The position numbers and the translations under genes are program-made. Below the pieces are notes generated by a model. That model was given only the letters and a program-made list of their open reading frames with translations. It had not been told where the DNA came from and did no database searches. Shown here piece after piece: positions 11,123 to 58,135 of a stretch of 64,000 nucleotides of DNA. Numbering within the stretch: the stretch's first letter is position 1; every line of letters begins with the position of its first letter. The stretch covers positions 672,001-736,000 of the forward strand of contig CP066684.1 in assembly GCA_016432325.1 (NCBI GenBank), written 5' to 3'. The stretch is from Candidatus Aenigmatarchaeota archaeon. GTDB taxonomy: Archaea > Aenigmatarchaeota > Aenigmatarchaeia > PWEA01 > JACQIF01.

Positions 11123-11232
11123 TGGCGCCCCCGGTGGGATTCGAACCCACGACCCCTTGCTTAGGAGGCTTGCACGCCTTGAACCGAGATCCAAAAACAA
11201 AGTGCTCTGAATCCAAACTGAGCTACGAGGGC
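11123..11232 (-). tRNA. tRNA-Arg(CCT) with 30-nt intron at 29/30 (11170-11199)
   Basis: Acceptor GCCCTCG/CGGGGGC, encoded CCA; anticodon stem CTT^GC/GCAAG restored on intron removal; BHB helix GCAC/GTGC. Confidence 0.9.
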
Positions 11233-11285
11233 ACTGTCCGAATTAACGAGAAGGTTTATTTAACTCTTCCTTCCGGGATATTCGC

Positions 11286-11648
11286 ATGCAAACCCTCGAT
11301 GGCGACGCCCTGAAACAGGACGACGCTATGAGGCTCAGCGGCGACGTGGAACTCAGGTTCGTCCATTACAACGAGCTGCAAGGCCTGCGGGATTTCAACG
11401 GGCGGCTGAGGGAGCTTTCGCTGCGCATGTATTTCCCCGTCTTCAAGAAGTCGGGCGACGGCCGCACATTCTTCGACCCGGCGCTGGTCAAGCCCGATGG
11501 CCTGACAGGGGAAGATTTCAGCTACTACGAAAGCGGGCGCCTGCGCGCGACGTGGCATGAGTGCGACGACTCCGAGGGAATGGGCGGTTGGGTCTCGTTC
11601 TACCTGAGCGCCGAAGAGGTCAGGACGCTTGCAAAGGAAGCGGCCTAG
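11286..11648 (+). CDS. Hypothetical protein
   Basis: 120-aa ORF, typical codon usage, upstream TTTATTTAA. Confidence 0.55.
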   Translation: MQTLDGDALKQDDAMRLSGDVELRFVHYNELQGLRDFNGRLRELSLRMYFPVFKKSGDGRTFFDPALVKPDGLTGEDFSYYESGRLRATWHECDDSEGMGGWVSFYLSAEEVRTLAKEAA

Positions 11649-13462
11649 ACGAAGACCTTTACCTCTTTACTCGTCGCCAACGCGTTCACCAGCTTCTTGC
11701 CGAGGTCCGAGTCCTTGGACAGGCGTATCTGCGACGTCTTCCCAACGGTCGCCGTGAACAGGTACTCGTCGGCGATGTACGTATTCGCGTTCTTGCCGCG
11801 CATCTTGTCCTCGAAGAAGAGCACGATGTACGCGCCCGTTTCATCGACCTCGAACGGCACCTGCTTGCCCAGCGTTTCGACCTTGGGCTGCACGTCTATG
11901 GAAACGCCGAGCTTGCGTTCTATCTCCGAGATGTTCTTGCCGGCTTTCCCGATGAGGCGTGGAATCATCTCGTTCTTCACCTTCACAACTACGCGCGTGT
12001 CGCTGATGAACTCCACCTTCATTCCGGGATCGAATTCGCGCAGCGCGTCGCGTATGCGTTCCGCGGCCAGCTTCTTCAGGGGGTCGTCGCGCTCTTCTGT
12101 CACGGGGATAACGACGTTCTCCTCGCCGAAGGTGTAGATTTCGTACTCAAGGTTCGCGGTCTCGAAGTCGCGTATCTCCACGACAGGACGGGCCAGGTCC
12201 TGCTCCGTCATTCCGGTGGGAACGCGGACCTTCATGTCTATCGAATAGACCTTGGCGACGGTCCCGTCCTTGACGTACACGATGGTGTCGAGGATGTGCG
12301 GTATCATGCCGAGCTCCGTCCGTCCGATGAAGCGCTGTATGGCGTCCACGGGCTTCGTCGCGTGCACGACTCCGACCATGCCGACTCCCGCGAGGCGCAT
12401 GTCCGCAAATACGCGGAAGTCCGCCGTCTTGCGAATCTCGTCGTATATCGTGTAGTCCGGTCGCACCAACAGCAGGATGTCCGCGGTGTTCGCCATGTTG
12501 CCGTTCAGGGGACCGTACTGCGTCACCTCCGCAGGGACGCGCAGGTCCCGCGGAGACTCCATGGTCTTGATTATCTTGTCCTGTTTCAGGTAGAACTCCG
12601 CGAGGCTTTGGACAAACGTGGACTTGCCGGAGCCGGGCGGCCCCGATATGAGGATTCCTTCCGCGTGTTCGCGCAGGCGCGCTATCAGTTTTTCAGTCGG
12701 CTTGTAGTCCTCAAGCGTCAGCTTCACGAGCGGCCGTACGACCGTAATCTCGTAGTCGCGGGAGAACGGCGGTTTCGTGATCGCGATGCGGTACTCTCCT
12801 ATCTGTATCACTTCGGCGCCGGTCATCGTTATCTCGAACTGGGCGTCGTCGCGGTGGCGCGCCACGTAGACGATGTTCTCGGCCATCTGCTCGAGTTCCG
12901 CGCGCGTGAGCGCGTCGCGGCGCAGTTTCACAAGCGTCACGTGACCGGGTTTGCCGTGCTTGGCCTGCGGAACGGCCCCTTCCTTCAGGTGCAGGGACAT
13001 CGTCTCCTTATCCAGGAGATCCTCGAAAAGAAGCTTGTACTTCTCCTCTGTCGGCGCCACGTAAAAGACGTTGAGGCCATCGGCCTGCGCGACTTCGGAC
13101 TGCACGAGATCCGCGGTATAAAGCGTCGCGTTGAACTCCTTGGCCGCGTCGCGTATGAGCGCGTCTATGCGGCCCTTCTTCGCTAGCTTTATCTCCTCGG
13201 CCGTCGGGCGGCGTCCGGTCGTCGTTATCTTCAGGCCTTTCGCGTCCGCCAGTTCGCGGAGCTTCTTTATCTCCCTGAGGCCGTCGAAACCTATTTCCAA
13301 GCCGCGGTTGGCCTGCGACTGAAGTTCGTCCAGAACCATCTCCGGAATCACGATTTCAACGTCGCGGAGGTCTCCTGCGTCTATCATCTCGGACAGCTTG
13401 CCGTCTATTATTATGCTCGTGTCCGGGACGATACGTTTGACTGATTCGTTGTTCTCTTTCAT
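11645..13462 (-). CDS. PIN-domain ATPase with KH domain (PINA, Holliday junction branch migration)
   Basis: N-terminal PIN (VPDTSIIIDG), Walker A GPPGSGKST, YDEIR, C-terminal KH LIGKAGKNI. Confidence 0.9.
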   Translation of the reverse strand: MKENNESVKRIVPDTSIIIDGKLSEMIDAGDLRDVEIVIPEMVLDELQSQANRGLEIGFDGLREIKKLRELADAKGLKITTTGRRPTAEEIKLAKKGRIDALIRDAAKEFNATLYTADLVQSEVAQADGLNVFYVAPTEEKYKLLFEDLLDKETMSLHLKEGAVPQAKHGKPGHVTLVKLRRDALTRAELEQMAENIVYVARHRDDAQFEITMTGAEVIQIGEYRIAITKPPFSRDYEITVVRPLVKLTLEDYKPTEKLIARLREHAEGILISGPPGSGKSTFVQSLAEFYLKQDKIIKTMESPRDLRVPAEVTQYGPLNGNMANTADILLLVRPDYTIYDEIRKTADFRVFADMRLAGVGMVGVVHATKPVDAIQRFIGRTELGMIPHILDTIVYVKDGTVAKVYSIDMKVRVPTGMTEQDLARPVVEIRDFETANLEYEIYTFGEENVVIPVTEERDDPLKKLAAERIRDALREFDPGMKVEFISDTRVVVKVKNEMIPRLIGKAGKNISEIERKLGVSIDVQPKVETLGKQVPFEVDETGAYIVLFFEDKMRGKNANTYIADEYLFTATVGKTSQIRLSKDSDLGKKLVNALATSKEVKVFV

Positions 13463-13525
13463 TTGTTTTCACCTTTTTGTTTTTCTTCGCAGCCGCCCGC
13501 AGGCGGATGTAAGAGTATGATGCGA

Positions 13526-14782
13526 CTACGCGAGGTCCCGTGCTGTCATGACGTTCATCGTTCTCGGTATGCGCACGCGTTTCTCGAGCTTCATTCCTAT
13601 GACGTTCCTGACGTTCTGGGCCTTGGCGAAGTTGATTAGTTTCTGGTCTACTGTCCCGTCCAGAACGACCGTGTGCGTGCCGTCGACCTCGCGCATGGCG
13701 TTGAAGACCTCCTTGGTCGGAATCTTACCGAGCACGTCCAGCCTCGCGTCCAAAAGATACGCCGCCCGAGTGCCTGTGAGGCCGTCGAGCACGTCCTTGA
13801 GACGGGCGACGTTCTCTTCTGTCATGCCGGCGGGTCTGCGCTTCGGCCGCTGGGCCTCTTCTTCAGCAGACTCCTCCTTAGACTCGGGTTCGCGTTCGGC
13901 GCGCAACGGCGTCTTCTCTTCCGTATAGTTGCCGCGCGTGCGATCCTCGAACGGTTTTTCAAGGTCGCGGCGCGCCGTTTCTATGGTTACGCGTTCGCGC
14001 AGCGACTTGTAAATCTCCTTCTTCGTCAGCTCTTCGACCTCCTTGCCGTATGGGGCGCGCGCCACGAATTCCAGTTCGACGCCCTTTTGGACCATCTCCC
14101 TGAGTATCAGGTCGCCTCCCCGGTCTCCGTCCAAAAACGCCGTCACGGACTTTCTTTTGGAAAGTTCGACGACCGCGTCAGGAACGGACGTGCCTTCCAC
14201 GGCTATCGTGTTCTTTATTCCGTTTCGCAGCAGTTTGAGCACGTCTGCGCGCCCCTCGCAGACCACGATTTCTTCAGAGACTTCGAGGTCTGGGCCGCAT
14301 GGAAGGCCTTTGTAAGACATCACTTCCGACGTGCGAACGGCGCCGACTACTTCTTCCATCATCTCGGTGCGCTCGGGCATCTTGTCTTCGAGCTGCGAAA
14401 GCAAGTCCTTGGCGCGCTCGACGAGATACTTCCGCTTGTTGGAACGGACGTCTTCAACTTTGTCTACGGTTATCTTGGTCTCGCACGGGCCGATGCGTTC
14501 AATCGTTTCGAGCGTGGCCGCTATCAGGGCAGTTTCGCTCGCGTCGAGCGAGGACGGGATTTCAATCATTCCCTCGCTCTTGCCGCCCTCGCTCTTGAGG
14601 GAGACCTCTATCCTGCCGATTCGCCCTGTGCGCTGCAGTTCGCGCAGATCCATGTCCGCGCCGAGGAGTCCCTCGGTCTGTCCGAAGACGGCTCCTATCA
14701 CGTCGGGCTTGTCTATGACGCCGCTTGCTGTGAAGCGGGCTACTATCGTATACTTTGATGTTGCTTGTGCCAGTTTGGCCAT
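13526..14782 (-). CDS. dnaG: Archaeal DnaG (primase-like, exosome-associated)
   Basis: DKPDVIGAVFGQTEGLLG..DLRELQRTGRIGRI, EGRADV, FLDGDRGG; GGAGGT SD. Confidence 0.95.
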   Translation of the reverse strand: MAKLAQATSKYTIVARFTASGVIDKPDVIGAVFGQTEGLLGADMDLRELQRTGRIGRIEVSLKSEGGKSEGMIEIPSSLDASETALIAATLETIERIGPCETKITVDKVEDVRSNKRKYLVERAKDLLSQLEDKMPERTEMMEEVVGAVRTSEVMSYKGLPCGPDLEVSEEIVVCEGRADVLKLLRNGIKNTIAVEGTSVPDAVVELSKRKSVTAFLDGDRGGDLILREMVQKGVELEFVARAPYGKEVEELTKKEIYKSLRERVTIETARRDLEKPFEDRTRGNYTEEKTPLRAEREPESKEESAEEEAQRPKRRPAGMTEENVARLKDVLDGLTGTRAAYLLDARLDVLGKIPTKEVFNAMREVDGTHTVVLDGTVDQKLINFAKAQNVRNVIGMKLEKRVRIPRTMNVMTARDLA

Positions 14783-15150
14783 TGCTATTACCTCCATTGT
14801 ACCGGCCAGAACGAGAGTCGCCTATTATACACTCTATCTTTGTGTTCCCACACTGACGGTGAACATGAGACTCGTTCTCCGGTGATTTTTGATGTTTTGT
14901 TATCGCGTTTACCAACGATGACGTCTGACTTTTGTAATGGTATTTGGCCCGCCGTTAACTACGCGGCCTCACCGTTGGCCTCAGAGGCCATCTCGTCCGG
15001 TGTGATCCGACAGGCGCAAACGTTCTTTCGGTATTGGGGTATCATTCTCTCATACAGCACGTCGCGCATAGCGCAAACAGCAGGCTTCAAGAATCGATTC
15101 TCAATACCTGCTCTGATAGGGGAGGGGTAGTTATTTAAGCGTATCTGTAG

Positions 15151-15165
15151 TATAACAGTGTTATA
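15151..15165. promoter_or_regulatory. Palindromic operator, copy 2
   Basis: TATAACAGTGTTATA about 10 bp from a minus-strand TTAAATA box facing dnaG. Confidence 0.55.
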
Positions 15166-15313
15166 TTCAGGGGATATGTGTGCCTAAAAGGGTCGTATAT
15201 GGTCTATTCGCACACAATGCGCATGTTTTGAGCATCTGGCGACGAAAGAACGACGTATACGTCTTTTTGCACGCCGACCGCTGACTATCTTGGGAAGCAA
15301 ACGAAAACGCGGA

Positions 15314-15835
15314 CTATCCTTTCACCATTTTAGGCAACAAATCAAAGAAGCTCTGGACCTCGTTCTTCATCATCAGCAGCTTGCGCGAAGCCTCTGCCTT
15401 GTAGCCCTCGCGGACATCCTTGTATATCGCCTTCTCGTAGAACGTTCGAAACGCCGCCCAGACTATCGATTTTTGGATGGGCGTGTCCTGCGGGTATTCG
15501 GTCTCGACGGTGGCGCCCATCGTGATATTCACGTCTCCGACGAACTTGATGTCCCCTTTGTGCACGGGCTTGAGTTTCATGTCGATGTTTATCTTATACG
15601 TTATCCTGGTGAACTTGTCCTTGTAACGGTAGGCCTCGATGATCGATTTTATGTTCTCGCTTTCGCCGAGCTTCACGTGCTCGTAGAGCTTCTCGTCTAT
15701 GTTCGCCTCGCTGAAGACCACGCGCTCGGCCAGAATGTTCTTTATTTCGTGGTAGAGCTGCTGCGGGTTCGGCACGTTCTTTACCTTGAGATTCGGCCGG
15801 ACGTCAACGTCGTCCTCGACCTTCAGTTTTGCGAT
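15314..15835 (-). CDS. Hypothetical protein, probable ATC start
   Basis: Frame open 60 nt upstream of the track GTG, up to an ATC directly after GGAGGCGGTCTGA. Confidence 0.65.
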   Translation of the reverse strand: MAKLKVEDDVDVRPNLKVKNVPNPQQLYHEIKNILAERVVFSEANIDEKLYEHVKLGESENIKSIIEAYRYKDKFTRITYKINIDMKLKPVHKGDIKFVGDVNITMGATVETEYPQDTPIQKSIVWAAFRTFYEKAIYKDVREGYKAEASRKLLMMKNEVQSFFDLLPKMVKG

Positions 15836-16378
15836 TCAGACCGCCTCCCTGCATTCGTCGCACAGCAGCTCGCCGCTGACGAGCCGTAGGTCCGTCGTGT
15901 AGTTGCCGCAGGCCTCGCAGAGGTCGTCGGCCTCTGCCTTCTGAACGTCCTTCTTGAGCTCCTCGAGCTCTGCGTACAAGTAATCCATCAGTTCCGGAGC
16001 GACCCGCAGGACGTCGCCGTCGGTGAGTATCCCGGCAAGCTTGCCGCTCTCGACGACCATCAGCCGTTTGATGTTCTTCTCGGCCATGAGTTTCATCGCG
16101 TCCACGAGCTCCGCGTCCGCTCCTATCGTAACAGGATTCTTCGTCATCACTTCCTTGACGCGCGCCTTCTTGGCGTCCTTGTTCGACGCCACGATGCGCT
16201 TGACGATGTCCTCGCTTGTAATGAGGCCTACGAGCTTCTGGCCGACGCAAACAGGAACGGAACCTATGTTTTTAGATAGGATTGTTTTGGCGGCTTCGAC
16301 GACGGTGTCCTCGGGACCTATCCTCGACGGCTTCGCCGACATCGCGTCCGCGACCGTTATTTTGCGCATGTTGCTCAT
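15836..16378 (-). CDS. CBS-domain pair protein with C-terminal zinc ribbon
   Basis: Two CBS repeats (VGLITSEDIV, AGILTDGDVL) and CEACG..CDEC. Confidence 0.9.
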   Translation of the reverse strand: MSNMRKITVADAMSAKPSRIGPEDTVVEAAKTILSKNIGSVPVCVGQKLVGLITSEDIVKRIVASNKDAKKARVKEVMTKNPVTIGADAELVDAMKLMAEKNIKRLMVVESGKLAGILTDGDVLRVAPELMDYLYAELEELKKDVQKAEADDLCEACGNYTTDLRLVSGELLCDECREAV

Positions 16379-16436
16379 TGCTCCTTTCGTTTATTTAATG
16401 CCTTGTAGGTATTATATGGATAAAAAGGTGAGTGGC

Positions 16437-16823
16437 GTGACCAACTACAGGAAAGGAGTTCGCTTCGAGTACCGCGTCCGCGACATCTTCCGCAGGCACG
16501 GCTATGCGGCCGAGCGCAAGGCCGCGTCCTCGCCCTACGACATCATGGTCATGAAAGGCGGCCGTGTCGTGTTTGTTGTCGACGCGAAGAAAACATCCGT
16601 CTCCGGCAAGAAGCATATTCATATCAGCAGGGACGACGTCTCGAAGATAATCAGCAACGCGTCCGTTCTCAACGCGCAGCCGCTGGTCGTCTACGGCTTC
16701 AACATGGGCGACGCGTTTGTCGCGTTCCCCGAAGAGCTCCTGAAGAACGACGGAAAGACCGTGCGTCTGGAGGACGGGATGCTTCTCGAGAAGTTTCTGC
16801 AGAGCTACATTCAGGCAGCCTGA
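16437..16823 (+). CDS. hjc: Archaeal Holliday junction resolvase
   Basis: YRKGVRFEYRVRDIF..GY..R.AAS.PYDIM..VDAK; GTG start after GGTGA. Confidence 0.75.
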   Translation: MTNYRKGVRFEYRVRDIFRRHGYAAERKAASSPYDIMVMKGGRVVFVVDAKKTSVSGKKHIHISRDDVSKIISNASVLNAQPLVVYGFNMGDAFVAFPEELLKNDGKTVRLEDGMLLEKFLQSYIQAA

Positions 16824-16850
16824 AGACCGCGGGGTCTCCGGCCCTGCCTT

Positions 16851-17006
16851 CTAAAAATCCCTGGATTTCCACATGGATGCCGCCAGAAACGCGCAGCCTG
16901 CAAGAGCGGCCAAGACAGCGACAGGCCAGAGCACCGGCCATTTTAAAGCTGCCAGCACCGCCGCGAGCGTAACCGACGTTCCTACGAAGAGCCATCGTTT
17001 GTTCAT
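16851..17006 (-). CDS. Small two-helix membrane protein
   Basis: 51-aa hydrophobic ORF MNKRWLFVG... Confidence 0.45.
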   Translation of the reverse strand: MNKRWLFVGTSVTLAAVLAALKWPVLWPVAVLAALAGCAFLAASMWKSRDF

Positions 17007-17033
17007 ATTGACCACGGTATGATTGTCCGCAGA

Positions 17034-17090
17034 CGGACTTTTCATGAAGGTTTTTGCGCGTTGGCTTACGCGCTTGGCGCAAAAAGCTTC
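17034..17090 (-). repeat. Dispersed hairpin element (REP/MITE-like), free-standing copy
   Basis: 45/57 ungapped identity to 26530-26586, with compensatory stem changes. Confidence 0.75.
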
Positions 17091-17820: not shown

Positions 17821-17856
17821 TACGTTTTGTCGATGTGGATATTTAAATCTGTCGAA

Positions 17857-18205: not shown

Positions 18206-18223
18206 TGTGGGGGTTGGTCGCGA

Positions 18224-19414: not shown

Positions 19415-19433
19415 AATACGACAGCGTGGGAAA

Positions 19434-26188: not shown

Positions 26189-26455
26189 CTAACGAATCCT
26201 TCTGTCTTGAGAGTCATCGCACCGAATCTCGTGAAACCCTCCACTGGCGACTTCCCGCGCCATCTGAGCCGCGCTCCAATAATCCCAAAACCTCATCCCG
26301 CCTTCACCAATAATCAGACCGTAATACACGTCCGTGGCCTTGGCGCCGTCGGACGGTTCCGCCGGGAAGAGGATGGTAGCTAACCATCTATACCCAAGAT
26401 CGCTCTCCCAAGCACGAATGACTTTCTTCCCATCGGCGAGCAAAGTCCTACTCAT
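26189..26455 (-). CDS. Hypothetical protein, weak DUF2958-like pattern
   Basis: KVIRAWES..GYRWLAT..YYGLIIG..WDYWS; 5' part of the track ORF is the tRNA-Ile gene, so trimmed. Confidence 0.45.
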   Translation of the reverse strand: MSRTLLADGKKVIRAWESDLGYRWLATILFPAEPSDGAKATDVYYGLIIGEGGMRFWDYWSAAQMAREVASGGFHEIRCDDSQDRRIR

Positions 26456-26529
26456 GGTCGACGTTACACCCAAATCGATATAAAGACAATGGTGGACCCC
26501 GAACAAACCTTCGGTTTGAACGACGTAAG

Positions 26530-26586
26530 CGTATTTTTCGCGAACGTTTTTCGGCGTTAGCTTACGCGATTGGCCGAAAAAGGTTC
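26530..26586 (-). repeat. Dispersed hairpin element, copy in tRNA-Ile trailer
   Basis: Matches 17034-17090; followed by a duplicate of the tRNA 3' end at 26490-26499. Confidence 0.75.
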
Positions 26587-26774
26587 TGGTGGACCCGGCC
26601 GGAGTTTCAATGGCACGAAGCCACTTCGAATTCGCCAAAGCCATTGCGTTTTTGCTAAAGCTTTTTCGCAAAAAGCTTCTCCGGCGACCCCCGGCTAGCC
26701 TAGACTCGCACTGTAACGATTTCCGTGCGAGGGTCATATAAGACCGGTGCTCTAACCAACTGAGCCACGGGTCC
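26587..26774 (-). tRNA. tRNA-Ile(TAT) with three introns: 37/38 (26697-26736), 53/54 (26631-26680), 59/60 (26604-26624)
   Basis: Spliced 77-nt cloverleaf GGACCCGTGGCTCAGTTGGTTAGAGCACCGGTCTTATAAGCCGGGGGTCGCCGGTTCGAATCCGGCCGGGTCCACCA; BHB helices CTTA/TAGG, CGCC/GGCG, TTCG/TGAA. Confidence 0.9.
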
Positions 26775-26801
26775 ACACACCCCCGTGAGCGCGTTTAACA
26801 T

Positions 26802-28548: not shown

Positions 28549-28798
28549 GGGCTGGTGGTCTAGCGGTTGCGCCTTTTTGCTGCGGCAAAAACCCGCGGGA
28601 AAAAATACGCCTGCCGGCAGCGCCGCACATGACGTCGCCTTAGGGAACACGATTCCCGGTGAACACATGGCGAATATCGCCGGTTCGAACCACCCTTTTG
28701 CGCGCTCGCGCTCTTCGAGCGCTCGCCTGTAAACGCGCAAAAGCGTGCACGGAAAGTCCGCCTGATGGCGCGACTCGAGAATCCGGCCCGGCCCACCA
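28549..28798 (+). tRNA. tRNA-Val(CAC) with three introns: D-loop (28569-28628), 33/34 (28642-28663), 59/60 (28690-28781)
   Basis: Spliced 76-nt cloverleaf GGGCTGGTGGTCTAGCGGTTATGACGTCGCCTTCACATGGCGAATATCGCCGGTTCGAATCCGGCCCGGCCCACCA; BHB helices GCGG/CCGC, CGCC/GGTG, TTCG/CGAG; TTTTATA about 30 bp upstream. Confidence 0.9.
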
Positions 28799-28850
28799 AA
28801 ACCTCACGGCAAGGGCCGTTGAAACGCGCAGCGTTTCTTGGGCCCACCAA

Positions 28851-30677
28851 TCACCCAAGCTCCGCATTGACTCTCTGCATCACGGCCTCCGGGCTGGCGT
28901 AGTACACGGATATTATCTTCGAGACGTCCCTGTAGTCGGTTATCTTGCGCGCGCGCATCCATTCCAGCACTTTAGCTCGGTTCCCAACCTCGTTCTTTAT
29001 ATCGTCTTCCCTGACGCCGGTCTGCTCGGAAAGCCGCTTCAGTATGTAAGAGCCTTTTGCCGACACGAATGTATCGGTCTTCGGTTCCCATGCGAAGGCT
29101 TCGTGCGCCACCGGAACGTTCTTGTCCCTGTCGAAGCCCGCTATCTCGTAAACGGACGCGACGCGCCTCGCGTAGCCGTGCTTCTTCTTCTCGCGCTTCA
29201 GGAAGACGACCATATCCAGCGTTTCAATCAGGGACGGCGAGAGGTTTATCGGGGCCGTGACGAGACGGTCCATGAGTTTCTCCATGTCTTCGGCGTGTAT
29301 CGTCGAAAGGCCCGTGTGGCCCGTAGCGATTTGTTGGAACAACACGTACGCTTCCTGGCCGCGAACCTCTCCGACTATGATGTAATCGGGCCGTTGCCTC
29401 AGCGACGATTTCAGGAGGTCGAAAAGGTCCACCTTGCCGTACTCCTTCTCGCCCATGCTCGAGATGGCTTCGCGCGCCACTTCCGGAACCCAGTGCGGGT
29501 GGGTGAGCTTCAGCTCAGGAGTGTCTTCTATCGAAACTATCTTCATCTCCGGTCGTATGAACAGACTGAGCACGTTAAGAAACGTCGTCTTGCCGGTTGC
29601 CGTGCCGCCGGAGACGAGGATGCTCTTGCCGTGTTCTATGCAGTACCAGAAGTAGGCCATCATAAGCGAATCGCACGTGCCGAAGTCTATGAAGTCCGTC
29701 GGCGTGAGCGGTTGCTCTGTGAACTTTCTTATCGTGAAGTTTGAGCCGCGCCGCGCGATGTCCGTGCTTAGCGTCGCCTGCAGACGCGAACCGTCCGGCA
29801 ACGCCGCGTCAACGAGGGGTTCGGCCATCGATACGGAGCGACCGGCCTTCTGCGCGAGACGGAACACGAACGAGTCCAGCTCGTCGCGGTCCTCGAAGAC
29901 GATGTTCGTCGGCACAGAGCCTATGCGCGGGTTCCTGTGGTAGATGAAAATGGGTATTCCGGTGCCGTCGCACGATATGTCCTCGATATAGGGGTCGTGC
30001 ATCAGCGGCTCTATCTTGCCCAACCCGATGAAGTCGCGTTTGATGTAGTAGACGAGAATCGCCTTCTTTGCGGGGTCCGGATTCGCTTCGAGGACCCGTA
30101 TGACTTCGTCTATCTTCTGTTCGAGGTAGCGTTCGGCCTCCGTACTCGTGACCTTCGTGAAAGAGACGTCGAGCCGTTCCTGTAATGTATCCTTGATGCG
30201 CTTGAGAACCACCGCGTCCTCCTTGCTCAACTGCGGTTCGACGACGGCATAAACGACCGAATGCGTGGACGGATTCCACGTGATGTGCGCGTACGCGAAT
30301 ATGCGCTCTCCTTTGGCCGGTTTCGCCGGCACGAGCGGATAGACGGCGTTGATTGTTCTGATATCGTCTTCTTCGTTAGCCGACGCCTTGGCCTTGGCCA
30401 TCTGTACCTTCGGCAGTTTGAGGAGCCGGCTCTCAGGAAGCGTCGCCGACTTGCCCTTCTCGACTATCTCTATCTTCACAGGTTCGTTCTGCCGCGGCAG
30501 CCCGGTCGGGATGGCATATCCGGCGATTGGCCGGCCTTCGGCGACGCTCACAGGGAACCCCGTGCCGTAACCGCCGCCCGGCGCGCCCCCTATCCTCCAC
30601 TTCCCCGCTGTTTCGAGAAGCTCCGGATGCTTCTGCGCGGCGTCCTTGAGCAGCCGGACGAGTTTGTTGACTCTCAT
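28851..30677 (-). CDS. Type IV pilus/secretion assembly ATPase (FlaI/TadA-like)
   Basis: IEDISCDG, LPDGSRLQ, FTIRKF, GGTATGKTT, IEDTPE, LRQRPDYIIVGEVRG, TGH..STIHA. Confidence 0.93.
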   Translation of the reverse strand: MRVNKLVRLLKDAAQKHPELLETAGKWRIGGAPGGGYGTGFPVSVAEGRPIAGYAIPTGLPRQNEPVKIEIVEKGKSATLPESRLLKLPKVQMAKAKASANEEDDIRTINAVYPLVPAKPAKGERIFAYAHITWNPSTHSVVYAVVEPQLSKEDAVVLKRIKDTLQERLDVSFTKVTSTEAERYLEQKIDEVIRVLEANPDPAKKAILVYYIKRDFIGLGKIEPLMHDPYIEDISCDGTGIPIFIYHRNPRIGSVPTNIVFEDRDELDSFVFRLAQKAGRSVSMAEPLVDAALPDGSRLQATLSTDIARRGSNFTIRKFTEQPLTPTDFIDFGTCDSLMMAYFWYCIEHGKSILVSGGTATGKTTFLNVLSLFIRPEMKIVSIEDTPELKLTHPHWVPEVAREAISSMGEKEYGKVDLFDLLKSSLRQRPDYIIVGEVRGQEAYVLFQQIATGHTGLSTIHAEDMEKLMDRLVTAPINLSPSLIETLDMVVFLKREKKKHGYARRVASVYEIAGFDRDKNVPVAHEAFAWEPKTDTFVSAKGSYILKRLSEQTGVREDDIKNEVGNRAKVLEWMRARKITDYRDVSKIISVYYASPEAVMQRVNAELG

Positions 30678-49623: not shown

Positions 49624-49657
49624 TACTCCAGATAGTGCGGACCGATAAATAAAGAAG

Positions 49658-49863
49658 TGGTAGCCCCGGTAGGATATTCATGAAACGCGCGGCGTTTCAT
49701 ACTTTCGGCTTCTTCGAATCCGAAAGTCTTCGAACCTACGTCAACGGTTAGCTTCGTCTGCTCACAGTTCTTTCGAACTCGCATCTTTAGAGACAAACTC
49801 CAAAGACCGCTATCCTTTTGTGGAACCGCTGGAATTCCGGTTTGGCCACTAGACGACGGGGCT
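49658..49863 (-). tRNA. tRNA-Gln(TTG) with three introns: D-loop (49818-49843), 37/38 (49750-49799), 59/60 (49675-49728)
   Basis: Spliced 76-nt cloverleaf AGCCCCGTCGTCTAGTGGCCAAGGATAGCGGTCTTTGGAACCGTTGACGTAGGTTCGAATCCTACCGGGGCTACCA; BHB helices GTGG/CCAC, CTTT/GAAG, TTCG/TGAA. Confidence 0.9.
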
Positions 49864-49897
49864 CCGCGCAGACGTACGCGAGAACGCTTATTAACCT

Positions 49898-50197: not shown

Positions 50198-50301
50198 AAC
50201 ACTGTAACGGGAAAGGCCTTTATTAACGTTGCGTTGAAATGTGAGTCCATGAAAACATCGAAACTCGGTTTCGAATCTTCCAGAGGAAACAGGTGAATTT
50301 C

Positions 50302-52119: not shown

Positions 52120-52730
52120 TTCTTGCGAAGCTCGCGCAGTTTTAAAACCACATAACAGATTGCCGCGAGAACGAGCGCTATCAGAACAACATTCTCATAC
52201 GGCGCCAGCATCGTTCCTACGTCGTGCCAGCGTTCGCCGAGCTTGACTCCGACCCACAACAGGAGACCGTTCCAGATCGCCGCGCCTGCAGCTGTCGCAA
52301 CAACGAACGGCACGAAAGGCATGCGCGCAGTTCCTGCCGGTATAGAAATCACGTGGCGCACCGCGGGTATGAAGCGCGCGGCGAATATCGCAACAAAGCC
52401 GCGCCTTTTCGCGAAACGTTCTGTCCATTCCAGCTCGCGCCGCGAAATCAAAAACCACCTGCCGTACTTTAAAAGGAATGGCCTGCCTGCGCGGACTCCA
52501 ACATAATAGCTCAACGCGCTGCCGACTATACTGCCCAGAGTCGCGACTGCCAAGGCTGTCATAAAGTCGAACGTTCCCGAGAATACCACGAAGCCCGCGA
52601 AAGGCATAACGGCTTCGCTGGGGACAGGGACGGCCGTGCTCTCCAGAACCATCATTAAGAAGAGCCCCTGATAGCCCATCGTCGAGAGTATCGAAACAAC
52701 TGTCGCGGACAGAACGCTTAGGATGCCCAT
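52116..52730 (-). CDS. DedA family membrane protein
   Basis: LESTAVPVPSEAVMPFAG, ARFIPAVRHVISIPAG. Confidence 0.9.
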   Translation of the reverse strand: MGILSVLSATVVSILSTMGYQGLFLMMVLESTAVPVPSEAVMPFAGFVVFSGTFDFMTALAVATLGSIVGSALSYYVGVRAGRPFLLKYGRWFLISRRELEWTERFAKRRGFVAIFAARFIPAVRHVISIPAGTARMPFVPFVVATAAGAAIWNGLLLWVGVKLGERWHDVGTMLAPYENVVLIALVLAAICYVVLKLRELRKN

Positions 52731-52781
52731 GGCCTCCGTGCGGCAAAAGCGTATATATCCTATTCGGTTCCTACCCGTCTC

Positions 52782-54074
52782 ATGGACTTCATGTCTGTGA
52801 GAGAGGCCATGGAACAGGAAGGCGGAACGGCCGCGCTGCGCGGCTGGTGCTCTACCGTGCGCACGCAGAAGACCACGGTTTTCATAATCCTGCGCGACGG
52901 AACCGGCCACATACAGGTCACGTTCAAAGAAAGCGACACGGACGCCAAGACGTTCAAGGCCGCGTCAGAACTTACGACCGAATCATCCGTAACGCTTACA
53001 GGCACGGTCGCAAAGGACGCACGCGCGCCCGGCGGCTTCGAGGTCAAGGGGCGCACGCTTGACGTTGTGCAACTGGCCGAACCATATCCCATCGCCCGCG
53101 ACAAGTCCCCGGAGTTCCTCATGGATCAGCGGCATTTGTGGATTCGTTCGCCGCAGATGACTGCGATACTGCGCGTGCGCTCGACGGTCTTCGGAGCCAT
53201 ACACGAATACTTCCGCTCGCAGAATTATTTTGAATTCCAGTCTCCTACGTTAACGAAGGCCGCTTGCGAGGGAGGTCCGACACTCTTCAAGGTCGACTAC
53301 TTCGGAGACGAAGTTTTCTTAACGCAGTCGTGGCAGCTCTATGCGGAAGCAGGGATTCACGCTCTTGAGAAGATTTACTGCATTGCTCCTTCGTTCCGCG
53401 CGGAGAAGTCGCGCACGACGCGCCATCTCACAGAGTACTGGCACGCGGAGTGCGAGGCAGCGTGGATGGACTTGGACGGACTGGCGCGCGTGGCGGAAGG
53501 ATTGATTTCGCACATCTGCGCACGCGTCGCGGAGAAGAACCCTGAAGACTTGCGCACTCTCGGACGCGACCCCAACGATTTGCTCAAGATAACGCCTCCG
53601 TTCCCACGCATCACGTACACCGAAGCGCTTGACATGCTGGCGAAGAAAGACGGCATCAAAATCAAGTGGGGCAAAGACCTCCGTACGGAAGAAGAGCGCG
53701 CGATTGCGCAGCATTTCGAACGTCCTGTCATAGTGACGCGCTATCCCAAGGAGATAATGGCCTTCTACAAGCCCGCGGATCCAAAGGATCCCAAGGTCGC
53801 TCTATGTTTCGACGTGCTCTGCCCTGAGCTCGGAACAGAAATAATCGGCGGCTCGCAGAGGGACGCGGACGTGAAGGCCATGATAAAGGCGTTGAAGAAA
53901 GAAGGCGCTGACCCGAAGTTCTATGACTGGTATTTTGCGACGCGACGTTACGGCGGCGTGCCTCACTCGGGCTTCGGCATGGGAGTGGAGCGCGTCATCC
54001 AGTGGATATGCAAGCTGGAGCACATCCGCGACACGATACCGTTCCCGAGAATGATGAATCGGTATTATCCTTGA
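52782..54074 (+). CDS. asnS: Asparaginyl-tRNA synthetase
   Basis: LTQSWQLYAE, FRAEKSRTTRHLTEYW, EIIGGSQR, WY..RRYGGVPHSGFGMGVER (AsnRS-type, not AspRS-type). Confidence 0.88.
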   Translation: MDFMSVREAMEQEGGTAALRGWCSTVRTQKTTVFIILRDGTGHIQVTFKESDTDAKTFKAASELTTESSVTLTGTVAKDARAPGGFEVKGRTLDVVQLAEPYPIARDKSPEFLMDQRHLWIRSPQMTAILRVRSTVFGAIHEYFRSQNYFEFQSPTLTKAACEGGPTLFKVDYFGDEVFLTQSWQLYAEAGIHALEKIYCIAPSFRAEKSRTTRHLTEYWHAECEAAWMDLDGLARVAEGLISHICARVAEKNPEDLRTLGRDPNDLLKITPPFPRITYTEALDMLAKKDGIKIKWGKDLRTEEERAIAQHFERPVIVTRYPKEIMAFYKPADPKDPKVALCFDVLCPELGTEIIGGSQRDADVKAMIKALKKEGADPKFYDWYFATRRYGGVPHSGFGMGVERVIQWICKLEHIRDTIPFPRMMNRYYP

Positions 54075-54690
54075 GGCTCATGACAATCCCTTCGACTTCT
54101 TTCATTACGTCTTCCGTCTTCGCGCGCTGTTGTAGCTCGTAAATCCCATTCAACACGCCTTCCACGACGAGTTGTTCTAGTGTAGCGCCTCCTCGACGCA
54201 TCCTCTTTGCGTGTTCCGCATAGCCCATTGCGAAACTGACGTCCAACAGTATGTCATAAAGGCTGTTTTTACCATCATTGAAACCGTTTACGTGCCGCGT
54301 CCATTTTATCCGTGCACAACACCGCAACCAACAAGACATTCTTTCGTTGTATGTTATGCATGCGCCTGTCGCCGCCTTTGCCACACGCGATATCTTATCC
54401 GGAACTGTTTTATCGCCCAATACAATATGATTTTCTGATAGGATATTTTCAATCGCATAGTCCCTCAACATCACGGCCTTCTGAAAGTTGTGCGGTGTCA
54501 GGAACATCACGTCCACCCATTTCCCCGTCTGAGCCTCGATTTTCCTTAGCACGTGGTGTGCTCCCTCCAGGGAGCCTACGTACACCACGTCAACATCTCC
54601 GGCATCCGCGCCCTTCCGCAGGTACGAGCCGTATATTATCACAAACTCGCCTTGCGGCACTTCCAAATCCAGTTCCCGAATCGCTAACAT
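53995..54690 (-). CDS. Pol beta-like nucleotidyltransferase domain plus helical C-terminal domain
   Basis: IIYGSYLR..GDVDVVYV..VDV; 3' end overlaps asnS by 80 bp. Confidence 0.7.
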   Translation of the reverse strand: MLAIRELDLEVPQGEFVIIYGSYLRKGADAGDVDVVYVGSLEGAHHVLRKIEAQTGKWVDVMFLTPHNFQKAVMLRDYAIENILSENHIVLGDKTVPDKISRVAKAATGACITYNERMSCWLRCCARIKWTRHVNGFNDGKNSLYDILLDVSFAMGYAEHAKRMRRGGATLEQLVVEGVLNGIYELQQRAKTEDVMKEVEGIVMSLKDNTDSSFSGTVSCRGCAPACISTG

Positions 54691-54740
54691 TCTCTCGCCT
54701 CTTATTGGTGCGCAGGGTCTGCAGCCCCGGCGCGTTCGTT

Positions 54741-54920
54741 TTATCCTAGCCTGAATCCGTCCCTGTACGGGACGAGTTTCCCCGAGGGACTTACGTGCGA
54801 AATGTCCACGTGCGGATACGGGTGGCCTCTCGACGAATGGATGTCGCTTATGACGGCCACGCTGCCGAACTCATTTAGGTATCCAAGTCGCATTTCCCTC
54901 ATCGATGTCGGTACACTCAT
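54741..54920 (-). CDS. 59-aa peptide (not in ORF track)
   Basis: GAGGTGA SD; MSVPTSMREMRLGYLNEFGSVAVISDIHSSRGHPYPHVDISHVSPSGKLVPYRDGFRLG. Confidence 0.6.
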   Translation of the reverse strand: MSVPTSMREMRLGYLNEFGSVAVISDIHSSRGHPYPHVDISHVSPSGKLVPYRDGFRLG

Positions 54921-54951
54921 GTCTTCACCTCTTTGTTTTTTGTTCGTCGTT

Positions 54952-55095
54952 TCATCTCAGTCCACGCAACGCGTAGCTCTGTTCCAACGCGCTCATGTAC
55001 AGCCCGGGTGGCTGCATCAGGTCGCTGGGCAGCGTGCCGCCGTACGGTATCGCGCTGTAGTGGCCCGGTCCGATCACTGGTCCTTGTCCGCTCAT
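54952..55095 (-). CDS. 47-aa Gly/Pro/Tyr-rich peptide (not in ORF track)
   Basis: GGAGGTGA SD; MSGQGPVIGPGHYSAIPYGGTLPSDLMQPPGLYMSALEQSYALRGLR. Confidence 0.6.
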   Translation of the reverse strand: MSGQGPVIGPGHYSAIPYGGTLPSDLMQPPGLYMSALEQSYALRGLR

Positions 55096-55132
55096 CGTTT
55101 TCACCTCCGTTGAACTTTTGTCGCGATGACAC

Positions 55133-55243
55133 TCATCGTCCCTTGTACTGTTTCATGCCGGCCTGACAGTTGGGACAGCACGGGTCAAACCCCGGCGGTC
55201 CGGGACAGTACTCGGCCGACAATCTACTTGCGTACGTTTCCAT
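55133..55243 (-). CDS. 36-aa Cys-rich peptide
   Basis: METYASRLSAEYCPGPPGFDPCCPNCQAGMKQYKGR; ATG 5 nt after the upstream stop. Confidence 0.5.
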   Translation of the reverse strand: METYASRLSAEYCPGPPGFDPCCPNCQAGMKQYKGR

Positions 55244-55248
55244 CACTC

Positions 55249-55437
55249 CTACCGCCCTCCGACGAGTTTCGCGTGCCCTTCGTACGCCGGGTTTCCGGCC
55301 AGCACGTCTCCCATTCTCTGTATGTACGCCCTGTCCGTCGACCAGTCCCAGCTCTGCGCCCACTTCTTTCTCTTCGCCGGCGCGCCTGGAATGAAGTACG
55401 ACGGGCTTTCTTCATCCGTTCCCAATTCGTTCACCAT
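55249..55437 (-). CDS. 62-aa peptide
   Basis: GGAGGTG SD; MVNELGTDEESPSYFIPGAPAKRKKWAQSWDWSTDRAYIQRMGDVLAGNPAYEGHAKLVGGR. Confidence 0.6.
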   Translation of the reverse strand: MVNELGTDEESPSYFIPGAPAKRKKWAQSWDWSTDRAYIQRMGDVLAGNPAYEGHAKLVGGR

Positions 55438-55643
55438 TTCCAAACACCTCCTTTGTTTTTTTGTCGCGTTCTTTGGTCCTGCGTTGTCCGCAGGGTTGGA
55501 ACCCAATTGATTAGCGCCACCATAAAAAACAGTCGTGTTACAGCTAACTGAAAGGATAAATAGTTGTACGGTTAACTAATTATAACGAAAAACGTTAACC
55601 CAAACGGGAGCGCTATATAAGGTTAATCTGTGGTGTATGAAGA

Positions 55644-56426
55644 ATGGACAAGGAGATAACACAGATTGTGTTTTTGGGTAATCCATACCATATGGAGAGG
55701 ATAAGATACCTTCTAAGAAAACGCATTCCGCAAAAGGTCTACTTCATAGAGGCCGAGGAGAACAATCACAGGGAGGAAGCCAAGGAGATGGCAGAAAAGA
55801 TGCGCTCCGAGCTTGAGGGGAATCTGCCGCGATGGGTGGTGGAAAAATCGGAGTTCACCGCTGTACCATTTTTTGACTTCACATCCGCTTTCATGAAACT
55901 AATCTCTATCATGCACAACGAGATTAGGCAAGACAGAGACGTTCTTGTCAACGCCCACGGCGGCAGCGTGATAGTCACTACAGCAGCCCTCTTGGCAGCT
56001 AACGCTACCGGAGCAAAGGTATGCTGGGTTGAGCCCGAGAGCTGGGGGTTTGTAGAAATGGGAGGCCACGTTTCACATATGGCCAAAGGAGCCAAGGGCA
56101 TCAAGGAGGTGGCGATTCCAATAAGCCTTGGAGTACCTGAGGGAGTGGACGCCAGCGTCCTCGGACATATCTACAGCAGAGGAGGAACCGTTAAGGGCAG
56201 ACTGTCCGCCATAACGGAGGACGTGGGCCTAGACAAGCTCGGCGCGAACGTGAAGAAGTCCAGCTCGGGCGTCGTGAAGCTCTCGAAGACCCTCGGCCGC
56301 CTCCGTGCGAAAGGCCTCATAGAGACGCGCAAGCTTGGCAGGAAATCCTTCGAAATCAAGCTCACCAAAGACAAGGGAGAGGTCGTGGGGAAGGTAGTGA
56401 GTCTGGTGTTAGAGAAAAGCATTTGA
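55644..56426 (+). CDS. CARF-like (DUF6293/Csa3-like) plus wHTH transcriptional regulator
   Basis: IVFLG..ERI..KVYFI, FFDFTSAF, VLVNAHGGS..AALLA, WVEPE; C-terminal LGRLRAKGLIETRKLGRK. Confidence 0.75.
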   Translation: MDKEITQIVFLGNPYHMERIRYLLRKRIPQKVYFIEAEENNHREEAKEMAEKMRSELEGNLPRWVVEKSEFTAVPFFDFTSAFMKLISIMHNEIRQDRDVLVNAHGGSVIVTTAALLAANATGAKVCWVEPESWGFVEMGGHVSHMAKGAKGIKEVAIPISLGVPEGVDASVLGHIYSRGGTVKGRLSAITEDVGLDKLGANVKKSSSGVVKLSKTLGRLRAKGLIETRKLGRKSFEIKLTKDKGEVVGKVVSLVLEKSI

Positions 56427-56430
56427 AGCT

Positions 56431-57843
56431 ATGCGCCTCAACGTTACCGTGTCTTATCAGGAACATTTAAAGAAGCTAAGGGAGCATCTGAGCAAAGAGA
56501 ATATCCCCTTCGCCGACCAATTAGACGCCGTCTATGCCGAGATGGCAGAAATCGATAAAAAACTGCAGATGTCTTACCCGCGGCCCGACGCCCTCATCCT
56601 TTGCGGAGGCAACGGAACCAGATTTGCGGAAGGCAAGAAACCAAAGGTCCTCGCCGAGGTCAATGGAAGAATCCCATTGGAGTATACAATCGACACGCTC
56701 GCAAAACTCAACTTCGACAAAGCCTTCATATCCGTTGGAGGCCCTCACGGAGACTCCATTAATGCCCACCTGAAAGAGATGGAGGCAAAACCAATCGGGC
56801 TGCTTGGACTAACGTCGAGGCCAACAATCATCGAATCCGTAGATTACGGCAGACTCATGTCACACCTACACCACATATCGAAGGCCAACGGGAAGCTGAT
56901 TGAAAACGGGTGCGAGCCGCTCAATCCAAACCTATTTGACAACGAACTAGACACGATTGTCGGGGTTGCGGCAGTTGCGTACACCGCCGCGACTCAACCG
57001 CCCCTTACAGTCGTGCTCGGCGATTCTATCTACCAAGAAGATGCCATATCATGGGCGTCAGGGTACTATACAATCGAGGCAAACATGGGCTTGACGGAGA
57101 TGATGCCTGGCACACGGGGAATATCGCCACGATTTCCATACATAAAGCCGCTCGTCCATGTTATGGAGAATTCAACAGAGGCGTATAAGGCGCCAGTCCC
57201 CAAGATTCATAAATTATTCTCCGTTCGCAAAGGCCCCCTTTCCTTTGATATCGGGCGTGCCGTTGGGTTCACCGAACACAGGACAAAACGAGTTGCCATA
57301 TCGGTTGTAAGCCCATTGCCCTTCGACTACAGGATTATCTTCAGAGATAACGACGATCCAGCTGGACGCTCTCTCCCCCTCACCGAGGACGGGTCCCGAA
57401 TAGACATGGAGAAGATCGCGTTACCGGGGATTTCTTACGGAGGATTCCTTTCGCACCTGAAAGAGGTCCAGTCCATATTCCCGCCGCTGGAAACAGGAAG
57501 TCGCCAGAAGCCTGCGCGCCTGCCACCATCGGACGCTACGCTCGAGCTTGCCGAGGCTACCTCGTCGCTGCTTGTGATGAGAACAAACTTCAAGTACTTC
57601 GACATCGACGACGAGGAGACGCTTGCCGCGGCCAACGACGTTGACATAAAGGAATTTATCGCCAACGATCCACTAAGCATCCTGGAGAAGTCGACGCCCG
57701 GATACAGAAAACAGTTTCTGGAAAAGCTTAACGAGGCCAGACACCGCCACCAACATACGTTCCGTGCTACAACTGGGGGACTCGGGAACTTTAAAGACCT
57801 CTATCAGTATGCGCTACGTGCATTTCGTAGACACACCGGATAG
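56431..57843 (+). CDS. Divergent NTP-transferase (nucleotide-diphospho-sugar transferase fold)
   Basis: ALILCGGNGTRF..KPKVLAEVNG.PLEY, VVLGD, FDIDDEETL; long insertions. Confidence 0.75.
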   Translation: MRLNVTVSYQEHLKKLREHLSKENIPFADQLDAVYAEMAEIDKKLQMSYPRPDALILCGGNGTRFAEGKKPKVLAEVNGRIPLEYTIDTLAKLNFDKAFISVGGPHGDSINAHLKEMEAKPIGLLGLTSRPTIIESVDYGRLMSHLHHISKANGKLIENGCEPLNPNLFDNELDTIVGVAAVAYTAATQPPLTVVLGDSIYQEDAISWASGYYTIEANMGLTEMMPGTRGISPRFPYIKPLVHVMENSTEAYKAPVPKIHKLFSVRKGPLSFDIGRAVGFTEHRTKRVAISVVSPLPFDYRIIFRDNDDPAGRSLPLTEDGSRIDMEKIALPGISYGGFLSHLKEVQSIFPPLETGSRQKPARLPPSDATLELAEATSSLLVMRTNFKYFDIDDEETLAAANDVDIKEFIANDPLSILEKSTPGYRKQFLEKLNEARHRHQHTFRATTGGLGNFKDLYQYALRAFRRHTG

Positions 57844-58026
57844 AATAAGTCGCAAGCAAAACGGCCCGTCTAACCCTTAAATACCTTCTCCTTCCAATAC
57901 TCGTCATGCGCGCAACACACGTACGAGAAAGTTCTGCATCCAGCCGCGCGAATAATACAGCCGTCTAGGGCCCATTTCTTCCCCAGACCACAGGCTTTAC
58001 GTCAGTGTCAACTCTATTAACCCAAT

Positions 58027-58135
58027 GCTCCGGTAGTTCAATTGGCAGAATGCTACGCTGTTAAACACTCCGCTCAAAGGGGCGGGTGCAAGCGGAGACG
58101 TAGAGACGGAGGTTCGAGTCCTCCCTGGAGCGCCA
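58027..58135 (+). tRNA. tRNA-Asn(GTT) with canonical 37/38 intron (58064-58097)
   Basis: GCTCCGG/CTGGAGC acceptor, CTACG/CGTAG anticodon stem, GGAGG-TTCGAGT-CCTCC, CCA; BHB helix CTGT/GCGG. Confidence 0.9.

Follow-up and report, generated by a model that had tools for sequence, protein, structure and literature searches.

The genome studied here (G000) is a single contig (C1) of 874,869 bp with ~56% G+C, which belongs to a tiny groundwater archaeon of Candidatus Aenigmatarchaeota (DPANN) and is rated ~90% complete. The window, that is, the whole 64-kb stretch of DNA that was analysed (G000:C1:672001-736000), contains five tRNA genes, for arginine, isoleucine, valine, glutamine and asparagine, and all of them are interrupted by introns with bulge-helix-bulge (BHB) junctions. 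There are eleven introns, 8 of them at non-canonical sites, and the Ile, Val and Gln genes carry three each. The genes are listed below in window coordinates.

11123..11232 (-), tRNA-Arg(CCU): exons of 33 and 47 nt, N73 plus encoded CCA, a 12-nt D-loop; intron at 29/30
26587..26774 (-), tRNA-Ile(UAU): exons of 38, 16, 6 and 17 nt; introns at 37/38, 53/54 and 59/60
28549..28798 (+), tRNA-Val(CAC): exons of 20, 13, 26 and 17 nt; introns in the D-loop and at 33/34 and 59/60
49658..49863 (-), tRNA-Gln(UUG): exons of 20, 18, 21 and 17 nt; introns in the D-loop and at 37/38 and 59/60
58027..58135 (+), tRNA-Asn(GUU): exons of 37 and 38 nt; intron at 37/38

The outer ends of the Arg and Asn genes coincide exactly with the interval 11123-58135. 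Spliced lengths, including CCA, are 80 nt for Arg, 77 for Ile, 76 for Val, 76 for Gln and 75 for Asn. In the parses chosen for the five genes all conserved bases are in place, and no gene has more than one stem mismatch; the sole mismatch among them, Val 13:22, is a common one.

Intron sites and junction geometry

The introns are described below with the motif formed at each junction, where H is the central helix, B a bulge, and h and h' the outer helices.

11170..11199 (-), Arg intron: 30 nt, at 29/30 in the 5' strand of the anticodon stem; HBh', H = GCAC/GTGC, h' of 5 bp
26697..26736 (-), Ile intron 1: 40 nt, at the canonical site 37/38; strict hBHBh', H = CTTA/TAGG, h formed by the anticodon stem
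26631..26680 (-), Ile intron 2: 50 nt, at 53/54; HBh', H = CGCC/GGCG, h' of 5 bp
26604..26624 (-), Ile intron 3: 21 nt, at 59/60; H = TTCG/TGAA, h formed by the T stem after removal of intron 2
28569..28628 (+), Val intron 1: 60 nt, in the D-loop after the seventh loop nucleotide (~20/21); H = GCGG/CCGC, using G18G19
28642..28663 (+), Val intron 2: 22 nt, at 33/34; H = CGCC/GGTG, h' of 5 bp
28690..28781 (+), Val intron 3: 92 nt, at 59/60; hBH, H = TTCG/CGAG, h formed by the T stem
49818..49843 (-), Gln intron 1: 26 nt, in the D-loop after the seventh loop nucleotide; HBh', H = GTGG/CCAC, h' of 5 bp
49750..49799 (-), Gln intron 2: 50 nt, at the canonical site 37/38; strict hBHBh', h of 6 and h' of 5 bp
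49675..49728 (-), Gln intron 3: 54 nt, at 59/60; hBH, H = TTCG/TGAA
58064..58097 (+), Asn intron: 34 nt, at the canonical site 37/38; hBH, H = CTGT/GCGG with two G-U pairs, h formed by the anticodon stem

The H helix has 4 of 4 pairs at each of the 11 junctions, and is accompanied by h and/or h' helices of 2-6 bp. By our own counts of h and h' pairs, five junctions are of the hBHBh' type, with hBH and HBh' represented three times each. In the D-loop introns, the 3' end of the intron supplies a CCRC tract, with which G15-N16-G18-G19 pairs to form H.

Detection of the genes and controls

The genes were located with a BHB-aware cloverleaf parser, which skips any candidate intron of allowed geometry: a 4-bp H helix, two flanking 3-nt bulges, a cut after the second bulge nucleotide, and an outer h and/or h' helix. 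The cleavage rule was derived from the canonical tRNA-Asn(GUU) intron. An earlier first-pass annotation of this DNA had listed five interrupted tRNA genes with 11 introns (Arg 1, Ile 3, Val 3, Gln 3, Asn 1), located in the D-loop (twice) and at 29/30, 33/34, 37/38 (three times), 53/54 and 59/60 (three times), 8 of them non-canonical. The parser recovered exactly this set, with every site in agreement, and returned no other gene or intron in the window. All five matches in the real sequence had at most one defect; a control search of 320 kb of reversed genome, on both strands, gave one match with 5 defects and none with two or fewer.

ARAGORN, which is independent of the parser and has nothing in common with it, called 5/5 of the spliced sequences with the expected anticodons and 0/5 of the unspliced ones, in accordance with the predicted clean cloverleaves of 75-80 nt with CCA. 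In its default mode it reported 0 tRNAs in the window. The Rfam tRNA model detected the Asn gene (58027-58132) and the Arg gene (11126-11232), along with a fragment below threshold at 26701-26774, within the Ile gene. The first-pass statement that standard pipelines would miss these genes is thus accurate for ARAGORN (0/5 found) and accurate in part for the Rfam model (2/5 found). Genome-wide, just 8 tRNAs were visible to the Rfam model, far too low a count for a genome with 90% completeness. A sixth tRNA was not found in the window by the Rfam model, the parser or the T-arm census described below.

BLAST searches of the genome with the mature sequences matched exon pieces at their own loci alone, and a contiguous intron-less copy of any of the five, which the first-pass annotation had named among the observations that would speak against it, was not found. 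The lack of intron-less copies indicates that the five are the sole genes for those anticodons, except for a second tRNA-Asn(GUU) gene.

Several other candidates were rejected. The intron-searching mode of ARAGORN (-i) made 12 calls over the whole genome, including a tRNA-Met at window 4025-5083 (+) with a 965-nt intron, judged to be an artefact, and a tRNA-Phe at window 11123-13020 (-) with a 1806-nt intron, an artefact that reuses the 3' half of the Arg gene. Weak Rfam matches in the window (HOXA11-AS1, nadA, sR39 and ycf2; E = 2-4) were taken as noise.

Genome-wide census and the 59/60 hotspot

A T-arm/acceptor census was carried out over the genome, requiring an encoded CCA, U8 together with a perfect acceptor stem, a T stem of five perfect pairs that includes G53-C61, and a T-loop with UUCRA, either intact or split once; the class with two introns was dropped, having many matches in the controls. 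The census returned 40 loci in the genome versus 1-2 in reversed or shuffled genomes, and the addition of tRNA-Ile(UAU), with its two T-loop introns, gives 41 tRNA genes. Seven of these have an intact T-loop and 34 an interrupted one, and 28 of the 34 interruptions are at, or compatible with, 59/60. All 28 introns at this site end in YGAR-AA, with the G invariant, and the tract pairs with U54-U55-C56-R57. The hotspot has a simple explanation: the T stem acts as h and the conserved T-loop contributes one H strand, so that an hBH motif results wherever a sequence with a YGAR-AA end is placed after nucleotide 59. These data support a genome-wide intron expansion with a hotspot at 59/60, a site that is interrupted in about two thirds of the tRNA genes, and the large expansion that had been proposed from the window extends to the whole genome.

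When applied genome-wide, the strict parser resolves only ~7 genes cleanly, since many junctions are more relaxed than its rule, and a relaxed version solves 19 of the 41. Many D-loop introns with a GCGCC cassette fall outside our own BHB rule. With about half of the genes incompletely parsed, the intron count for the genome is a minimum. Nineteen genes were solved with at most one defect: 8 have one intron, 4 have two, 6 have three and one has four, mainly located at 59/60 (14), at 37/38 (13) and in the D-loop (4). The layout with introns in the D-loop and at 37/38 and 59/60 is shared by three Arg isoacceptors and Gln. Nearly all the tRNA genes of the genome have at least one intron. The second tRNA-Asn(GUU) gene (G000:C1:851596-851835, +) differs in sequence from the one in the window and gives a clean parse, with a 27-nt intron at 30/31 and a 138-nt intron at 59/60; both copies of Asn(GUU) in the genome are therefore interrupted. 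Among the very few uninterrupted genes is a tRNA-Thr(UGU) (G000:C1:831659-831731, +), whose T-loop is GGCAGAG, not UUCRANY.

Putative promoters and overlapping reading frames

The AT content around the 41 census genes peaks at 75-90% at about -31 to -27, the position expected for archaeal promoters. TATA-like boxes, of the TTTAAATA or TTTATATA type, are readable ahead of many of the genes, including 4 of the 5 in the window: GTTAAATAAA lies at about -30 of tRNA-Arg(CCU), and GCTTAAATG, GTTTTATAC and GGTTAATAAG lie upstream of tRNA-Ile(UAU), tRNA-Val(CAC) and tRNA-Gln(UUG), respectively.

Long open reading frames (ORFs) overlie three of the genes: one of 195 aa at 26189-26776 (-) covers the Ile gene, one of 361 aa at 28659-29744 (+) the 3' end of the Val gene, and one of 152 aa at 10758-11216 (-) most of the Arg gene. 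The suggestion that spurious ORFs would be called over the tRNA genes is borne out to this extent, and gene callers that choose the longest ORF would overlap the Ile, Val and Arg tRNA genes. The tRNA-Ile(UAU) of the window is encoded in this genome beside a tRNA-Ile(GAU). It represents an uncommon archaeal means of reading AUA, which is also present in ARMAN-2.

Repeated intron cassettes

The introns of the five window genes were compared with the rest of the genome and with relatives, and several share segments with the introns of other tRNAs. The first 36 nt of Val intron 1 are a repeated cassette, 97-100% identical at genome positions 620612, 830582, 60906 and 640922, and each of these copies begins a D-loop or 59/60 intron of another tRNA. 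Over 40 nt, the Gln intron at 59/60 is 87.5% identical to the intron at the same site of tRNA-Arg(UCG) (genome 743370-743633). Parts of the Val 59/60 intron recur in 59/60 introns at genome positions 851704 and 802299, and its cassette has a homolog at 59/60 of tRNA-Met(CAU) in G122, a genome of the same genus. Shared 5' starts also recur among the 28 introns at 59/60. Similar introns were thus found in different tRNAs or at different sites, which is the pattern that characterises transposed tRNA-intron families (Fujishima 2010).

Ile intron 2 carries a palindromic hairpin of the AAGCTTTTTGCGAAAAAGCTT type, with copies at G000:C1 849730-849758, 620679-620705 and 635448-635474, and also in four relatives (G126, G129, G019 and G113). 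The copies are located directly after the stop codon of the tRNA-splicing endonuclease gene (endA), or in the trailer or an intron of other tRNA genes, and in G126 two of them lie near each other (G126:C1:376712-376827). This hairpin behaves like a small mobile or terminator-like repeat.

Exon conservation and intron turnover in relatives

The Rfam-visible tRNA count in 120 further genomes of the phylum, similar in completeness, ranged from 0 to at least ~38 (among the best 37 candidates per genome) and was clustered by family. This wide, family-clustered spread indicates that tRNA gene disruption is lineage-specific and not phylum-wide. Several families look still more disrupted than this one, with 0-6 Rfam-visible tRNAs.

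Orthologs of individual genes showed conserved exons and variable introns. The tRNA-Gln(UUG) of G113, which belongs to another family, has the same layout as that of the window, with introns in the D-loop and at 37/38 and 59/60, and its exons are distinguished by compensatory changes on both sides of four pairs in the anticodon and T stems (27:43, 31:39, 49:65 and 50:64). The tRNA-Gln(CUG) of G122 has an intron at the same D-loop site as tRNA-Gln(UUG) here, with the same H helix, and an intron-less tRNA-Gln(CUG) is present in G130. In G125, tRNA-Ile(UAU) has near-identical exons, with introns at 23/24, ~37/38 and 59/60 (~250 nt) and none at 53/54. The BLAST-matched exon pieces of tRNA-Arg(CCU) in G122 are 100% identical to those of the window gene, and its introns are in the D-loop and at 37/38 and 59/60, not at 29/30; an ortholog from family f2 has an intron at 30/31. 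The tRNA-Ile(GAU) gene has one intron in this genome versus three in G122. The G122 loci examined for Ile(GAU) and Arg(CCU) were L080:100-400 and L117:1047-1262; the G122 Arg and G125 Ile loci were left unsolved by the parser and were read by eye.

These comparisons show that introns are gained and lost quickly between close relatives. The orthologs also provide the strongest support for the five genes being functional.

Predicted splicing enzymes

The endonuclease EndA, whose identification and typing the first-pass annotation had proposed, is encoded outside the window by a single gene of 201 aa with PF02778 and PF01974 domains (L009:1474-2079, -, corresponding to G000:C1 about 849757-850362). 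It aligns over its full length with the alpha4 EndA of Methanocaldococcus jannaschii (1a79; 8.5e-30). Its homologs, at 49-85% identity, come almost solely from Candidatus Aenigmatarchaeota, many of them from groundwater. The ligase RtcB is also present (PF01139, 3.6e-160). A second PF01974 match or a beta-like ORF was not found in the genome; a tblastn match to EndA at genome 502490-502837 (E = 0.18), considered as a possible beta subunit, lies inside an ORF for a secreted protein of 389 aa and was discarded.

The only insert relative to the M. jannaschii enzyme is one of 6 aa, the Lys-rich LKKGPK, located between the catalytic Tyr and His; no insert of the L1 or L2 type was observed. The LKKGPK insert is conserved in every aligned Aenigmatarchaeota homolog, and inserts of equal length and position occur in the N. 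equitans alpha subunit (3iey_A) and in ARMAN-2 EndA (4fz2). Like its aligned homologs from Aenigmatarchaeota, this EndA keeps both the catalytic Tyr and the catalytic His.

EndA is thus alpha4-like in sequence, with its oligomeric state and activity predicted on that basis. Broad-specificity EndAs are characterised by one of two arrangements, (alpha-beta)2 carrying the CSL/L1 loop and epsilon2 carrying the ASL/L2 loop, and it has neither; the system would work as in the families with those enzymes, through a different enzyme architecture. What its sequence does contain is a single alpha subunit whose C-terminal domain has an additional loop, as in N. equitans alpha and ARMAN-2. In a survey of DPANN archaea (PMC5829648), alpha4 EndAs with an L3 loop are associated with tRNA disruption, and the LKKGPK insert probably corresponds to the L3 loop as described there.

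Interpretation and alternative explanations

The window most probably holds five functional tRNA genes, each with one to three short introns spliced by proteins, as part of a genome-wide expansion; we give this reading a probability of roughly 0.9. It is carried by the gene structure, the BHB geometry, the conservation and covariation of exons, the turnover of introns and the presence of the enzymes, and the genomic features by which BHB introns are recognised are found together here: the junction geometry, a cloverleaf restored by excision, and a genome encoding EndA and RtcB. Each gene would be transcribed from its own TATA-box promoter as an intron-bearing precursor, which would fold into a BHB, or a relaxed hBH or HBh' motif, at each junction. 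One strand of H would be provided by conserved tRNA nucleotides, namely U54-U55-C56-R57 for 59/60, G15-N16-G18-G19 for the D-loop and 32-35 for 37/38, and the other by the last nucleotides of the intron. The sole EndA would cut both bulges and RtcB would then join the exons, yielding cloverleaves of 75-80 nt with encoded CCA. The introns would be built in part from repeated hairpin cassettes recurring between different tRNAs.

Several observations weigh against this interpretation. EndA has Ala at the position of the catalytic-triad Lys (K156 of the M. jannaschii enzyme, K334 of the M. kandleri one): the motif reads AHSVRK in M. jannaschii, N. equitans, ARMAN-2 and M. kandleri versus AHNIRA here, and the Ala is shared by all the aligned Aenigmatarchaeota homologs, which come from the 60 loci found. 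The residue that follows it is K or R in most of these homologs and T in this genome. Given the change from Lys to Ala at a catalytic position, the chemistry of EndA should not be presumed. Classic alpha4 EndAs are reported to act on strict BHB motifs at the canonical site only (PMC3239211), and despite this strictness non-canonical sites account for 8 of the 11 introns here, and relaxed hBH or HBh' junctions for 6. Some intron boundaries can slide by 1-2 nt with the same product, for example in the Gln D-loop intron, and the Val gene has an alternative, poorer parse with its first intron at 12/13, the alternatives either dropping A14 and G18G19 or needing an abnormal 12-nt D-loop. Finally, splicing itself, the enzyme responsible for it and the mode by which the introns spread are deduced from the genomic data.

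The explanation that survives best beside functional, protein-spliced genes, although an improbable one, is that the genes are real and the intron map is partly over-fitted, with some of the 11 introns misplaced or miscounted by a permissive BHB search. The 12/13 parse of Val would fit this, as would the Rfam alignment, which puts the Arg intron into the anticodon loop; elsewhere in the genome the parser splits one long T-loop intron of tRNA-Lys(UUU) into two, and it leaves about half the tRNA genes incompletely solved. However, the alternatives to the chosen window parses are defective and the chosen ones are not, the reversed-sequence control has no low-defect parse, and the same sites recur in orthologs. 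For the Arg gene, the 29/30 placement is preferred to the anticodon loop because it yields the anticodon CCU together with a perfect CTTGC/GCAAG stem, and because that stem is contiguous in the orthologs.

Still less probable is that these are decaying tRNA pseudogenes hit by small mobile hairpin repeats, with the cell relying on other tRNA genes that a host supplies or that are missing from the assembly. Several intron segments are indeed repeats that also occur outside tRNA genes, such as the Ile intron 2 hairpin after endA, the genome is incomplete by about a tenth, and DPANN archaea rely on hosts for many functions. Decay would hardly place every insertion in exact BHB register, such that excision gives a perfect cloverleaf, or leave exons identical or compensated across genera and families while introns differ. 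In addition, promoter boxes are kept, intact copies are missing from the single 875-kb contig, EndA and RtcB are encoded, and this explanation would turn 34 of 41 tRNA genes into pseudogenes.

Removal by self-splicing or by a nuclease other than EndA with RtcB, for which the Ala in place of the catalytic Lys of the sole EndA and the strict specificity of classic alpha4 enzymes (PMC3239211) could be invoked, is the least probable of all, as introns of 21-92 nt are far below the size of group I or II ribozymes, all junctions have the 3-nt bulges 4 bp apart that are the signature of EndA recognition, the Tyr and His of the triad are kept, and the Lys-rich insert is common to N. equitans alpha and to ARMAN-2 EndA, the latter of which cuts relaxed motifs (PMC3239211, PMC5829648).

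A wider proposal, which we regard as tentative and rather doubtful, builds on the reading of functional, spliced genes. Instead of being passive relics, the introns might stem from mini-hairpin cassettes of an active family, each bringing one half of the splice signal with it and spreading with the tolerance of EndA. The YGAR-AA 3' end of 59/60 introns would pair with the universal T-loop and the CCRC of D-loop introns with G18G19, which would make insertion into, and splicing from, almost any tRNA possible. Spread might proceed through a reversed EndA/RtcB reaction followed by reverse transcription, or through insertion at the DNA level. Tolerance would be conferred by the phylum-specific EndA, which lacks the canonical catalytic lysine and would have gained a Lys-rich loop.

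Comparison with known systems and significance

The BHB introns described here are a known kind of gene disruption, and their load is of near-record density. The Thermoproteales and ARMAN precedents for multi-intron tRNAs that the first-pass annotation had cited are correct; its account was incomplete, as Asgard lineages (PMC11291895) and other DPANN archaea with alpha4 EndAs and L3 loops (PMC5829648) are precedents too.

A close resemblance is to ARMAN-2 (Fujishima et al. 2011, PMC3239211; Hirata et al. 2012, PMC3488258), another DPANN archaeon with a small genome and many non-canonical intron sites. ARMAN-2 has a pair of introns at 53/54 and 59/60, and its 59/60 hBH intron is cleaved in vitro (PMC3239211). 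The combination of 53/54 and 59/60 in one T-loop occurs in tRNA-Pro(GGG) there and in tRNA-Ile(UAU) here, and both genomes share 59/60 introns of the hBH type, a tRNA-Ile(UAU) gene and an EndA insert between the catalytic Tyr and His. The two differ in their enzymes: a three-unit epsilon2 EndA with the ASL/L2 loop in ARMAN-2, and one alpha4-like gene of 201 aa here, for which no beta subunit was found.

As in the Thermoproteales (Sugahara 2008; Fujishima 2010; reviewed in PMC4033280 and PMC4090602), there are up to three introns per gene and relaxed BHB motifs, as well as similar introns across tRNA species, implying spread. The Thermoproteales belong to TACK, with a heterotetrameric (alpha-beta)2 EndA carrying the crenarchaeal loop (L1), whereas a DPANN genome with an alpha4-like EndA is found here. 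In addition, 59/60 alone is interrupted in about two thirds of the genes of this genome, and short hairpin cassettes also occur outside tRNA genes. Among Asgard archaea, 92-95% of the tRNA genes of Atabeyarchaeia and Freyarchaeia contain introns, more than half of them several and many at non-canonical sites (Valentin-Alvarado et al. 2024, PMC11291895). Intron density is comparable to that of this genome; those lineages differ in belonging to another superphylum with larger genomes, and the report includes no analysis of cassettes or turnover. The survey by Kaneta et al. (2018, PMC5829648) deals with Pacearchaeota, Woesearchaeota, Nanohaloarchaea and Mancarchaeum and not with Aenigmatarchaeota, and does not mention the change from Lys to Ala. 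In the searchable literature on tRNA introns of Aenigmarchaeota or Aenigmatarchaeota, no paper describing them in the phylum was found. Secondary features of interest in the present case are an alpha4-like EndA without the canonical lysine, the extreme bias to 59/60, the shared YGAR-AA end and the turnover of introns within a genus.

The genes are missed by ordinary finders (ARAGORN 0/5 in the window, and Rfam 8 of about 44 in the genome), so that annotations and estimates of the tRNA complement will be wrong unless BHB-aware tools are used. This genome provides a third independent case of a near-saturating intron load, after the Thermoproteales and some Asgard lineages. The occurrence of an alpha4-like EndA with a broad intron load argues that subunit architecture is not decisive for substrate breadth. 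Fast turnover, together with cassette families that have a common 3' end, makes the gain of tRNA introns testable by comparative metagenomics, and if the introns do derive from an active cassette family, this lineage would be a live model for the origin of archaeal and, by extension, eukaryotic tRNA introns.

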